A stretch of 38,956 nucleotides of DNA from a bacterium. Its GTDB lineage: Bacteria; Hydrothermota; Tepidihabitantia; Tepidihabitantales; Tepidihabitantaceae. The position numbers and the translations under genes are program-made. Where the stretch lies: positions 1-38,956 of the forward strand of contig JAWOHE010000100.1 of assembly GCA_046485285.1 (NCBI GenBank), given 5' to 3'. Each line of letters opens with the position of its first letter. Within the stretch, counting starts at the first letter, position 1. Below the pieces are notes generated by a model that had not been told where the DNA came from, made no database searches, and saw nothing but the letters and a program-made list of their open reading frames with translations. Shown here in pieces: positions 7,146-9,629 of this stretch.

Positions 7146-8525
7146 TCAGATCGGCAGCAGCAGCTTGACAGTCGTGAAGTAGATGACGAGCCCGGTGATA
7201 TCGACGGTGGTCGTCAGCGCCGGGCTCGCGACCACCGCCGGGTCGAGCCTGAGCCGGGCCGCGGCAAGCGGCAGGACCGCGCCGATCAGCGTCGCGGTCA
7301 CCACCTGCAGCGCCAGCGCCACCGCGATGGCGACCCCGACCATCGACAGCGAGACGCCCGCGGGCAGCGCCGCCGAGCCCCCGTGCAGCGCCACCCGGCC
7401 GTAGGCGACCAACCCGAGCATCAGCCCCAGCATCAGCGCGATCTGCAGCTCCTTGCCCAGCACCCGGAAGATGTCACCGGGCTTCATCTCCCGGAGCGCC
7501 AGCGCCCGGACGACCAGCGACGCCGACTGGCTGCCGGTATTCCCGCCCGTGCCGACCAGCATCGGCATGAACGCGGCCAGGATCACGAGCTGCTTCAGCA
7601 TGCCCTCATAGCTCTGGACGATGAAACCGGACACCAGCCCGAGCGCGGCCAGCGCCAGCACCCAGAGCGACCGGCGCCGGAAGTGCCCCCAGGCCGACGT
7701 CTTGAGGTAGCCGAGCGCCTCGTGGCTGCCGCCGATTGCCATCAGCTTCTCGATGTCCTCGGTCTGCTCCTGGACGATGACGTCGAGCGCGTCGTCGTGG
7801 GTGATGATGCCGACCAGCGCGTCGCCCTCGTCCACCACCGGTAGCGCAATCAAGTCGTACTTCCGGATCCGCCGCGCCGCCTCTTCCTGGTCGTCGCTGA
7901 CCCGGACCGAAATGACGTCCGGGTGCATCACGTCGCGGACCAGCGCGTCGGGCTTTGCCAGGATCAGGTCCTTGAGCGAAACGTGCCCGAGCAGTCTCCG
8001 CTGGTCGTCAAGCACGTAGGAGTAGTAGATCGTCTCCTTGTCCGGCGCCTCCCGCCGCAGCCGCTCGATCGCCTGCGCGACCGTCTGGCCGGGCGCGAGC
8101 GTGGCGTACTCCGAGGTCATGATCGCGCCCGCGGTCCGCTCCTCGTAGGACGCCAGCCGCCGGATGTCCTCCCGCTCCGCCATCGCCAGCGCGGGCAGGA
8201 TTGCCTCCTGCCGCTCCTCGGACAGCCGCTTGAACAGGTCGACCCGGTCGTCCGGCGGCATGTCGGAAAACAACCGGGCCAGCTCCTCGCGCCGGAGCAC
8301 GTCCAGGACTTCCTCCTGCACGTCCTCCTCGAGGTGGCTGAAGACATCGGCCTGGACCGGGTGCGAAGCGTGCCTCAGCACCTCCCAGACTTCGGCCGGC
8401 TCGAGCGCCGACAGCATCTCGGCGACGATGGCCGGGTGGCTGGTCTCACAGAATTCGCGCAGGGTGTCGAACTGGCCCTCGGCGACCAGCTCGCGCAGTT
8501 CCGGTACGAGCAGCGGGTTCTTCAT
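7146..8525 (-). CDS. mgtE: Magnesium transporter MgtE
   Basis: MgtE N-domain, TAGAIMT, CBS pair (YDLIALPVVD), GTGGNTGSQSA, LDPAVVASPALTTTVDITG. RBS GGAGGTG. Confidence 0.96.
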   Translation of the reverse strand: MKNPLLVPELRELVAEGQFDTLREFCETSHPAIVAEMLSALEPAEVWEVLRHASHPVQADVFSHLEEDVQEEVLDVLRREELARLFSDMPPDDRVDLFKRLSEERQEAILPALAMAEREDIRRLASYEERTAGAIMTSEYATLAPGQTVAQAIERLRREAPDKETIYYSYVLDDQRRLLGHVSLKDLILAKPDALVRDVMHPDVISVRVSDDQEEAARRIRKYDLIALPVVDEGDALVGIITHDDALDVIVQEQTEDIEKLMAIGGSHEALGYLKTSAWGHFRRRSLWVLALAALGLVSGFIVQSYEGMLKQLVILAAFMPMLVGTGGNTGSQSASLVVRALALREMKPGDIFRVLGKELQIALMLGLMLGLVAYGRVALHGGSAALPAGVSLSMVGVAIAVALALQVVTATLIGAVLPLAAARLRLDPAVVASPALTTTVDITGLVIYFTTVKLLLPI

Positions 8526-8528
8526 CGC

Positions 8529-8617
8529 TCACCTCCGTCGGCCACAGCCGTGCCGGCCGCGGCCGGGAGGTGACGTGTCGGCTCAGTCGGGCGGCAAGGT
8601 CACCTGCCGGGCCGCAG
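8529..8617 (-). promoter_or_regulatory. Alternative RBS-sequestering and anti-sequestering hairpins in the mgtE leader
   Basis: 8529-8573 forms a ~20-bp hairpin pairing TCACCTCC with the SD GGAGGTGA. Its 5' arm can instead pair (~17 bp) with 8599-8617. Confidence 0.7.
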
Positions 8618-8710
8618 GCGCGGCGAACTCGGGTGCGGCTCCTCGGGCTCGTCGCCGGACGAGTCCCGAGTGATGTAGCGGCCCGTGCGGCCGCCATCCG
8701 TTACGTTCAA
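8600..8710 (-). CDS. Putative mgtE leader peptide, 36 aa (MNVTDGGRTGRYITRDSSGDEPEEPHPSSPRLRPGR)
   Basis: TTG start 6 nt after AGAAAGGA. It lies downstream of a promoter, has an acidic/Pro-rich then Arg-rich C-terminus, and its stop sits in the anti-sequestrator strand. Confidence 0.55.
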   Translation of the reverse strand: MNVTDGGRTGRYITRDSSGDEPEEPHPSSPRLRPGR

Positions 8711-8757
8711 TGCGTTTCCTTTCTCCGACCGGCCTTTCGCACGGTCGAACGTCGTAG

Positions 8758-8785
8758 ATGTTATCCTGCCGGAGTCGCCGGTCAA
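8758..8785 (-). promoter_or_regulatory. Sigma70-type promoter of the mgtE leader
   Basis: TTGACC-N16-TAACAT. Confidence 0.6.
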
Positions 8786-8803
8786 CACCGCCGTGCCTGC
8801 TCG

Positions 8804-9610
8804 TCACCCCTCGAACCTCCTCACCTCCTCGTACAGCCTGATGACCTCGTCGCGGACCTCGACGAGCACCCGGTCGGACAGGATGCCCGGCCCGAGCGCC
8901 TTCACCCGCGCCTCCACATCCCTCAGCCGCTCCGCCCGGCTCTTCCTCCGCCTCCCCCGCCCGACCCGCTTTGACTCTTGGCTCTTGGCCTTTGGCTTCT
9001 GGCTTTCGGCCCTTGGCTCCTGGCTTATCCCCTCCTCCGCCTTCTCTATCGCTTTCCACACCATCCTGCCGTAGCTCAGCGCCACCTTCTGCGCCACGTA
9101 GCTCAGCTCGCTCCCGGACCGCGCCAGCTCCTCCGTCACCGCCCGGTCCACCGCCCGGTACCGGTGCCGCGCCGCCAACTGCCGCGCCAGCGCCTGCGCC
9201 CGCCTCGCCGGCGCCACCGGCTTCTGCCCGGCCCGCTTCCGCGCCGCCTCGGTCTTCAGATCGTAGACATTGAGCCGCGCCGCCTCCCGGCTCTTGTCCC
9301 CGGCAAGCCCGGCCAGCGCCGTTTCCCGCGCCCGCGTCTCCCGCACCGGCGGCCGGGAAGTGTACCGGTCCAGCACCGGCACCAGCTCCCCGAACGACGC
9401 CCCGCAGGCCCGCAGGTAGTCCGCGAGCAGCGCCAGCGAGAACTGCCGCAACCGCCCCCTCTCCAGCCTGCCCAGGTGCAGGTGGAAGCCCGGCCTGCGC
9501 CCCATCACGTGCGCCAGCTCCCGGAGCGGAAGCCCGGCCGCCCGCCGCAACGACCGCAGGCGCCCGCCCAGTTCGGCCATCATCCCGACGCTCTCAGCCA
9601 AACTCTTCAT
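8804..9610 (-). CDS. XRE-like helix-turn-helix protein with basic helical C-terminal extension
   Basis: LGGRLRSLRRAAGLPLRELAHVMG...LGRLERG matches an XRE HTH pattern. SD GAGGTG precedes TTG 9613 / ATG 9610. Confidence 0.7.
   Translation of the reverse strand: MKSLAESVGMMAELGGRLRSLRRAAGLPLRELAHVMGRRPGFHLHLGRLERGRLRQFSLALLADYLRACGASFGELVPVLDRYTSRPPVRETRARETALAGLAGDKSREAARLNVYDLKTEAARKRAGQKPVAPARRAQALARQLAARHRYRAVDRAVTEELARSGSELSYVAQKVALSYGRMVWKAIEKAEEGISQEPRAESQKPKAKSQESKRVGRGRRRKSRAERLRDVEARVKALGPGILSDRVLVEVRDEVIRLYEEVRRFEG
8972..9027. repeat. 8 x 7-bp degenerate tandem repeat (TGGCTYY-like) inside the HTH gene
   Basis: tgactct tggctct tggcctt tggcttc tggcttt cggccct tggctcc tggctta. Confidence 0.85.
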
Positions 9611-9629
9611 CAATCACCTCACTACGACA

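Follow-up and report, generated by a model that had tools for sequence, protein, structure and literature searches.

The question raised by this locus is how translation of mgtE, the gene of a Mg2+ channel, is controlled from its leader. Among bacterial Mg2+ channels MgtE is the most common, and the RNA known to control it is the M-box. We analysed a 38,956-nt stretch of DNA as a whole (the window), in which all coordinates of mgtE and its leader refer to the minus strand. Our answer comes in two parts of different strength. Most probably, a conserved leader open reading frame (ORF) is coupled to a switch acting on the Shine-Dalgarno (SD) sequence of mgtE, and the leader in the window is a divergent member, shifted in its tail, of a family that spans several phyla. 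With less assurance, we lean towards a fuller model in which the leader is a Mg2+-sensing leader-peptide translational attenuator, on at low Mg2+, where the ribosome itself is probably the sensor that sets channel production.

The leader open reading frame and its family

The features on which the argument turns are as follows.

7146..8525, minus strand: mgtE, 459 residues; domains MgtE_N, CBS (two) and MgtE transmembrane
8583..8588, minus strand: conserved GACTGA, the leader stop in the same-genus loci L002 and L003, out of frame in the window
8600..8710, minus strand: leader ORF, TTG at 8710-8708, 36 codons, TGA at 8602-8600, peptide MNVTDGGRTGRYITRDSSGDEPEEPHPSSPRLRPGR
8630..8653, minus strand: acidic/proline core (D E P E E P H P, codons 20-27), where the ribosome is proposed to stall or abort
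8717..8726, minus strand: leader SD sequence GGAGAAAGGA, 6 nt ahead of the TTG
8758..8785, minus strand: sigma-70-like promoter, -35 TTGACC at 8785-8780, 16-nt spacer, -10 TAACAT at 8763-8758

The gene is identified by its domains (PF03448, 3.3e-25; PF00571, 1.6e-22; PF01769, 2e-34). It is the only mgtE of this type in the genome (2.34 Mb assembly, 88% complete) and looks monocistronic, with its own promoter, and 278 nt of non-coding DNA lie between it and the stop codon of a helix-turn-helix (HTH)-type gene at 8804. One sigma-70-like site was seen, where 0.0 were expected from shuffles, and both of its hexamers are kept in the same-genus orthologs L002 and L003, in which the spacer has diverged. 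Promoter, leader SD sequence, TTG and 36-residue ORF, all of which the initial annotation had proposed from this locus alone, are thus present. Its view of the arrangement as a local oddity has to be given up, since the leader is one member of a large family distributed over many phyla.

To delimit this family, 190 loci with relatives of MgtE were gathered, and 176 upstream regions were taken from them, 155 of which are unique. A blind screen of the 176 regions for ORFs of at least 8 residues containing an acidic/proline-rich 8-residue stretch, duplicates counted, returned 43 sense and 1 antisense ORFs, all of one peptide family. At the nucleotide level a profile (nhmmer) matches 98 of the 176 regions (83 of the 155 unique ones), with 59 matches near full length. 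The carriers, named here by their depositors' record labels, are titled Desulfobacterota, Acidobacteriota, Zixibacteria, Ignavibacteria, Hydrogenedentota, Kiritimatiellae, Sedimentisphaerales, CSSED10-310 and WOR-3. The family consensus reads MSDSDGSHSCxxxTQELTQxEPDDPGPRRxRxAxxDVNGRxxxRx, and the window peptide aligns with it. A profile made from 33 leaders outside WOR-3 finds a single match in the whole window on both strands, at 8722..8512 (minus strand; profile positions 9-238, E = 3.8e-11, 36.2 bits), and a peptide profile built without the WOR-3 rows matches residues 1-29 of the window peptide with 20.3 bits. From the TTG at 8710 it is 19 codons to D20, at which the six-residue core match begins; the family has this same spacing. 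Wherever whole genomes were searched (five of five, plus that of the window), the leader occurs once and always at mgtE.

Several properties of the aligned leaders bear on whether this ORF is a gene. An ORF of at least 25 residues ending 45-90 nt before the mgtE ATG is present in 57 of the 59 near-full-length leaders, a count in which the row of the window was set by hand, and 43 of the 59 have [DE][DE]P. Counted back from the core, the start codon comes at exactly 19 codons in 28 of the 35 unique aligned leaders, one of these 28 having an in-frame stop, and GGAGG lies 5-8 nt upstream of the start. Entropy at the three codon positions is 1.22, 1.23 and 1.50 bits in 56 leaders chosen by nucleotide profile; it is 0.89, 0.88 and 1.23 in 28 motif-selected leaders, in which the selection itself makes the first two bases of codons 23-25 invariant. 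An acidic residue occupies position 23 in 47 and position 24 in 46 of the 56 leaders, D and E interchanging at the third base, and Pro is found at position 25 in 41 and at position 27 in 31. Gaps in the ORF alignment upstream of the core are mostly of 3, 9 or 27 columns by eye; the off-frame ones, of one and two columns, occur in L064 and L098, which start at an internal Met, and changes of frame are confined to the tail (window, L188, L145 and L058). By these patterns of substitution, the leader ORF is a small ORF of translated appearance, and its acidic [DE][DE]P core is selected at the amino-acid level.

The same picture is seen at close range. MgtE of L002 and L003 is 90% and 84% identical to that of the window, and their leaders align with the window's, with AAAGGAA and then an ATG at the position of its TTG. 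Among the three the frame is gapless over the first 27 codons despite heavy substitution, and the core reads D-E/Q-P-D/E-E-P-H-P. The frames of L002 and L003 continue to GACTGA, giving peptides that end in ..PRD. In the window there are 2 extra bases between the core and GTGACC, which put GACTGA out of frame; the stop falls seven codons early, within the conserved GTGACC, and the peptide ends in ...DEPEEPHPSSPRLRPGR. The window stop is 74 nt from the mgtE ATG, outside the 52-68 nt of the family, and the peptide is without the family's conserved C-terminal tail. A further same-genus locus, L032, deposited under the label candidate division WOR-3, has a leader identical to that of L003.

Contigs of four coded sequencing runs (X1, X6, X7 and X8) were also aligned to the leader. 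Run X8 carries an L002-like leader sequence, and the others carry two leader variants (X1 with X6, and X7) that are about 92% identical over 8450-8733 (22 substitutions), with one 1-nt deletion, at 8568 in the arm that pairs with the mgtE SD sequence, and zero indels within the leader ORF. Since independent contigs contain no ORF indel, the early stop is genuine and not an assembly error. The variants have zero substitutions at 8612-8668 (codons 15-33) and 7 (X7) or 8 (X1/X6) in codons 4-14, which marks the core as the most constrained part. They also retain AACATCT of the promoter region. A 62-residue form of the ORF that starts with GTG at 8788 was rejected: this start lies upstream of the -35 hexamer, so that the longer form is not expected on the transcript.

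In the nearest relatives outside the genus (L112 and L114, with MgtE 75% and 72% identical, and L004-L008, 63-66%, of other genera in the same taxonomic family), the profile found no match at E up to 10. The leader of this genus is therefore common to distant phyla and not to the nearest genera. About 60 nt before the ATG, L112 has features of its own: a promoter-like TTGACG-17-TAGTAT and a short leader that lacks an ORF, where the partner of CUCCGG can be either CCGGAG or, if a bulge is allowed, the SD region. It may represent another kind of arrangement that does without an ORF.

Databases gave no name to the leader. No match to three leader peptides was found in Pfam or NCBIfam, and the 31 matches of the peptide profile among 5.8 billion proteins are all unnamed or called 'hypothetical protein'. 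No Rfam family matches the leader when the whole window is searched at gathering threshold; at an E threshold of 10, positions 8400-8900 give two chance-level matches alone, MH_s10 (15.4 bits, where the gathering score is 81) and Six3os1_3, and 36 related loci give tRNAs only at gathering threshold. No description of a leader ORF ahead of mgtE was found in the literature searched, whose coverage leaves out most subscription journals. The family is apparently undescribed and unnamed.

Some members depart from the common form. A core-less subgroup (L125, L143, L046, L141 and L118/L044) matches the profile without an acidic/proline core and keeps the M-x-D-x-D-G-S N-terminus and an open frame of about 45 codons (for example MTDADGSPRCPKRGLHG...); these are natural variants that could test the model. 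In short forms (L064, L098, L107, L033 and L090) the upstream start is missing or its frame is closed by a stop, and the sole possible start is an internal Met, 3-9 residues ahead of the E-D-P-G core, so that the core then lies near the N-terminus, as in MgtL, mgtA's leader peptide. Finally, L068, L085 and L160 share an in-frame insertion of 27 nt (9 codons) in the loop of the inner hairpin (alignment columns 174-200), just before the leader stop, which lengthens the peptide tail and leaves the frame intact.

Competing helices and a proposed kinetic switch

Two helices compete for one RNA arm between the core and mgtE, and a third, smaller one overlaps one of them.

8529..8550, minus strand: 3' arm of the sequestering hairpin, with the mgtE SD sequence GGAGG inside it at 8536-8532
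8554..8574, minus strand: anti-SD arm (..GTCACCTCCCGGCCGCGGCCG), common to both competing helices
8599..8617, minus strand: anti-sequestrator arm, the last leader codons and stop, pairing with 8574-8557
8611..8624, minus strand: small hairpin GCCGC/GCGGC, 8624-8620 with 8615-8611, found in minimum-energy folds and corresponding to family helix S1:S2

Both long helices that the initial annotation had drawn were recovered. In the sequestering hairpin, 8573-8554 pairs with 8550-8529 over 20 bp with one 2-nt bulge (UCACCUCC:GGAGGUGA); it takes up the final 50 nt ahead of the mgtE ATG and buries the SD sequence. The 110-nt stretch that contains it folds at -61.0 kcal/mol (z = -4.0), which 0 of 200 shuffles equal. 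The alternative helix, 8617-8599 with 8574-8557, consists of 7 + 4 + 6 bp (17 bp, checked by hand). With the 3' arm blocked or still untranscribed, it becomes the minimum-energy fold and grows to about 22 bp, and under these conditions it stays so with a ribosome at codon 22, 25 or 27. A ribosome with its P site at codons 22-27 leaves 8617-8599 free to pair with the anti-SD arm, and a ribosome on the stop codon covers it. In ribosome-free RNA the 5' part of the anti-sequestrator is occupied by the small hairpin 8624-8611.

Covariation was counted on a 35-row alignment obtained by motif-based selection. RNAalifold recovers the sequestering hairpin alone from these rows; the remaining helices were first drawn by eye and their pairs counted afterwards, with the following results (cells paired, best slid control, changes on both sides of pairs; the rows are related, so that the shuffle counts overstate significance and are not probabilities).

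Sequestrator S4:S5: 92.5% of cells paired against 44.6%; 9 pairs changed on both sides; observed value reached by 0 of 500 shuffles in all five measures
Anti-sequestrator S2:S4: 83.0% against 42.1%; 8 pairs, 19 cells; covariation score reached by 0 of 500 shuffles
Inner hairpin holding the stop codon: 74.7% against 47.6%; 8 pairs, 22 cells; 2 of 500 shuffles
S1:S2: 77.5% against 51.2%; 3 pairs, 13 cells; 13 of 500 shuffles
H0, a hairpin in the first 10 codons: 71.6% against 43.3%; 6 pairs, 7 cells; 113 of 500 shuffles

The two alternative stems thus both covary, as the initial annotation would have it, and each computational check that it suggested came out in its favour. S1 is CCGCGA, immediately after the core; S2 is CGCGGCCGG plus GUGAAC within the ORF, and pairs with CCGGCCGCG and GUUCGC of the anti-SD arm S4. 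In some rows a change in the shared arm is matched in both of its partners, as a two-state switch predicts: columns 142/231/256 read A-U-A in 2 rows, columns 157/220/273 read G-C-G in 1 row, and columns 153/221/272 read G-U-A in 3 rows and A-U-G in 3 rows.

These helices suggest a mechanism that would operate while the RNA is being made. During co-transcriptional folding the ON helix, 8617-8599 with 8574-8557, could form before the SD arm exists. A leading ribosome that passes the core would unwind 8617-8599 and terminate there, the window stop being the 3' end of that arm; the anti-SD arm would thereby become free and capture the SD sequence in the far more stable OFF hairpin. At low Mg2+ the ribosome would more often stall or abort at codons 20-27 and leave 8617-8599 free, the competing hairpin 8624-8611 being masked by the stalled ribosome or irrelevant, and the ON helix would persist as a kinetic trap in which mgtE is translated. 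The net effect would be more channel at low cytoplasmic Mg2+. Mg2+ as the signal, with the switch on when it is low, is what we infer from the acidic/proline core, the function of the gene and precedent: at low Mg2+ translation is aborted more by nascent chains of the acidic/proline type, a property that MgtL exploits, according to one report (10.1101/2021.02.02.429294).

The energies bear directly on this proposal. RNA that is nascent, or whose SD arm is blocked, has ON as its minimum-energy fold in the window and in L002, L003, L059 and L140. For L059 and L140, an ON fold with S1 paired to the inner 3' arm as well comes close to OFF in energy. The direct-path heuristic findpath puts the barrier from ON to OFF at an estimated 13.0 kcal/mol for the window and 19.1 for L002. 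The earlier proposal that stalling frees the anti-sequestrator and exposes the SD sequence stands in its geometry; as a statement about equilibrium it does not, because equilibrium folding keeps the SD sequence buried. With SD buried at equilibrium and OFF far stabler, the switch can work only kinetically, during transcription, and a kinetic switch set in this way is plausible on these models.

A number of observations weigh against the proposal, in addition to the kinship of the aligned rows. With a 27-nt ribosome mask and equilibrium folding, the unpaired probability of the window SD sequence is 0.00 at two-decimal precision with the ribosome at any of the 36 codons; SD opening is flat at 0.20 in L002, at most 0.19 in L003 and L140 and at most 0.08 in L062, and the 0.55-0.58 reached in L059 comes at codons 20-21 and not 25-27. 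The stability advantage of OFF over ON is 17.6-18.6 kcal/mol in the window, and 15-19 kcal/mol when L002 and L003 are taken together with it, and strand displacement by the SD arm could be fast. Among the helices, support for S1:S2 is modest, H0 was rejected as unsupported given how many shuffles reach its covariation score, one anti-sequestrator pair is an A.C mismatch in 11 of the 35 rows, and in the X1/X6 variant substitutions at 8608 and 8609 put uncompensated mismatches in the middle of the anti-sequestrator helix. On the side of the peptide, 16 of the 59 near-full-length leaders are without a strict [DE][DE]P, including two without a qualifying ORF, and one subgroup has no acidic core whatever. 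The 19 residues that precede the core may make the acidic/proline effect weak here: in E. coli the destabilisation of the ribosome is counteracted by a preceding nascent chain to a degree that depends on its length and levels off at about 30 residues, according to the same report (10.1101/2021.02.02.429294). These 19 residues are mostly small (S, D, G, T), and it is speculation that this is relevant to the effect. Translation of the leader ORF, the signal of the switch and its direction are all read from sequence; none of the 23 sequencing runs listed was an RNA run holding the leader.

Alternative explanations and the surrounding locus

A first competitor is a ligand- or metal-binding, riboswitch-like RNA that controls the SD stem directly, the ORF being secondary or tolerated. 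Nucleotide conservation in the first 10 codons extends to third positions, with AGTCATAGTTGCC recurring and being partly kept in L098 and L107 although their frame is closed; several helices covary, and ON and OFF are nearly isoenergetic in L059, as for a switch tipped by a ligand. A strong riboswitch candidate published from Thioalkalivibrio, the 'mgtE motif', likewise has a large imperfect stem with SD and AUG at its foot (PMC11109978). Against this explanation stand a strong SD sequence and start codon conserved at a fixed distance, a frame open in 57 of 59 leaders, excess entropy at the third codon position, D/E interchange at invariant acidic positions and upstream indels that are mostly in frame; the leader also has no Rfam match, and we consider this explanation rather unlikely. 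If the ORF is translated, it could drive the same switch and report proline, charged tRNA-Pro or general translation capacity. Against this, the leader has no consecutive prolines, which are those that need EF-P, the acidic pair before Pro is its most constrained feature, and the regulated gene is always the Mg2+ channel, in one copy per genome. Pro is nonetheless frequent, with five codons among the window's 36 and Pro 25 and Pro 27 in 41 and 31 of 56 leaders, and the Salmonella leader ORF mgtP is described as responsive to charged tRNA-Pro (PMC8092293). We regard this explanation as unlikely. A peptide sensor of another kind is also conceivable, and we hold it doubtful: a dedicated arrest peptide of about 45 residues that would sense Mg2+ or another cation in the exit tunnel, with MSDSDGSHS as sensor and the near-invariant E/D-D-P-G-P as effector. 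The effector resembles the G|P junctions of SecM arrest and of viral 2A bond skipping; the window has P-H-P (region of residues 23-27) where the family consensus has P-G-P. If true, many anaerobic lineages would have, in place of the M-box, a ribosome-based cation sensor of pan-phylum range, overlapping an RNA that is a near-isoenergetic two-state switch.

Two simpler explanations do away with any sensor. Terminating ribosomes might only melt the base of the hairpin, so that the ORF acts as a constitutive enhancer by positive coupling, and in most members the hairpin begins about 8-12 nt after the stop, which is itself 64-68 nt from the ATG. The stop of the window, 26 nt before the hairpin, is out of reach, and even in the family a terminating ribosome would open the lowest pairs only and not CCUCC:GGAGG. 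The covarying anti-sequestrator helix and the conserved acidic core would be left unexplained, and positive coupling alone seems very unlikely. That the ORF is merely a chance open frame in GC-rich DNA beside an ordinary structured 5' untranslated region (UTR) is extremely improbable. High-GC DNA is poor in stops and this region has many overlapping spurious ORFs, but the profile from other phyla matches this site alone in the window (E = 3.8e-11), the screen found 43 sense ORFs against 1 antisense, and many members, less GC-rich by eye, yet keep the 45-codon frame. The leader-peptide attenuator, in which a translated acidic core acts on the SD switch, is the reading that we continue with below.

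Around the leader, the upstream gene at 8804-9613 (minus strand) encodes a 269-residue protein with a C-terminus rich in Lys, Glu and Arg and an HTH_31-like N-terminus (E = 6.8e-6, 26.7 bits, slightly below the cut-off of 27). The 3' end of this gene aligns with the sequence upstream of the L002 and L003 leaders, and the neighbourhood is therefore conserved within the genus. In another frame, a 158-residue ORF at 8583-9059 (minus strand) crosses the leader and ends at the conserved GACTGA (..VTLPPD*). Its last seven codons alone are meaningful, being the ancestral tail frame of the leader family; the remainder is a GC-rich artefact that overlaps the upstream gene.

Comparison with known leaders of Mg2+ transport genes

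To our knowledge, Mg2+ sensing by ribosomes on acidic/proline codons has been worked out only in the enterobacterial mgtA and mgtCB leaders. The closest functional likeness, by description, is mgtQ-mgtB of Salmonella, in which acidic codons and alternative stems free the mgtB ribosome-binding site (Choi et al. 2021, PMC8092293). As there described, it shares with the window leader an ORF with acidic codons, mutually exclusive stems of which one sequesters the ribosome-binding site, a Mg2+ transporter as target and control at translation initiation. A translational switch driven by an acidic-residue upstream ORF has thus already been published, and the design is not new in kind. No relationship in sequence was seen, in an analysis that did not take in mgtQ itself, and the two differ in their build. 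The ORF of mgtQ has 8 codons, lies between the operon genes mgtC and mgtB and targets a P-type ATPase (PMC8092293), whereas the window leader has 36 codons (about 45 in the family), stands in the 5' leader of an MgtE channel gene, places 19 residues before its acidic core and belongs to a family that spans many phyla.

MgtL of mgtA, in E. coli and Salmonella, resembles the window leader in its acidic/proline chain and in the choice between alternative folds of the leader RNA. The ORF of MgtL has 17 codons, and its output is Rho-dependent transcription termination. In the window the scan of the mgtE leader found 0 intrinsic-terminator-like sites, and the output helix hides an SD sequence; the regulated gene is mgtE, with its MgtE_N, CBS and MgtE domains, and not the P-type ATPase gene mgtA. 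The motif of MgtL stands directly after the initiator Met, and the core of the window at residues 20-27 of 36. MgtL, with its EPDP motif, is described as reporting Mg2+ through destabilisation of the ribosome (10.1101/2021.02.02.429294).

The M-box (ykoK, RF00380) takes the same position in the leader before MgtE-type genes, presumably for the same purpose. It gave no match in the window at an E threshold of 10, none in 36 related loci at gathering threshold and none in the 88%-complete genome, the last in a search whose control genomes, B. subtilis and L. lactis, did match. As the initial annotation expected, the leader is distinct from the M-box; it contains a conserved, putatively translated ORF. 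An upstream ORF has been described with the M-box of Mycobacterium, and we set it aside as a precedent, since its peptide is a different one and lies behind an M-box (PMC12810186).

The remaining comparison is with SRC-65-1, the 'mgtE motif' of Thioalkalivibrio, which like the present family lies upstream of mgtE and has several stems. It is presented as a strong riboswitch candidate whose last stem, large and imperfect and backed by covariation, carries SD and AUG at its bottom (PMC11109978). There it is reported from one gammaproteobacterial genus only and read as a riboswitch, and that text mentions no ORF. By description, on which the comparison is based, SRC-65-1 may overlap the leader family, and among the riboswitch candidates upstream of mgtE there may be some that are in fact attenuators of the leader-peptide type. 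A single-copy leader ORF before mgtE in genomes labelled with at least seven phyla suggests that the ribosome as sensor is an old or repeatedly transferred solution, one that substitutes for the M-box. With dozens of natural variants (short, long, core-less and with frame-shifted tails) and covarying ON and OFF helices, the family makes this mechanism directly testable.

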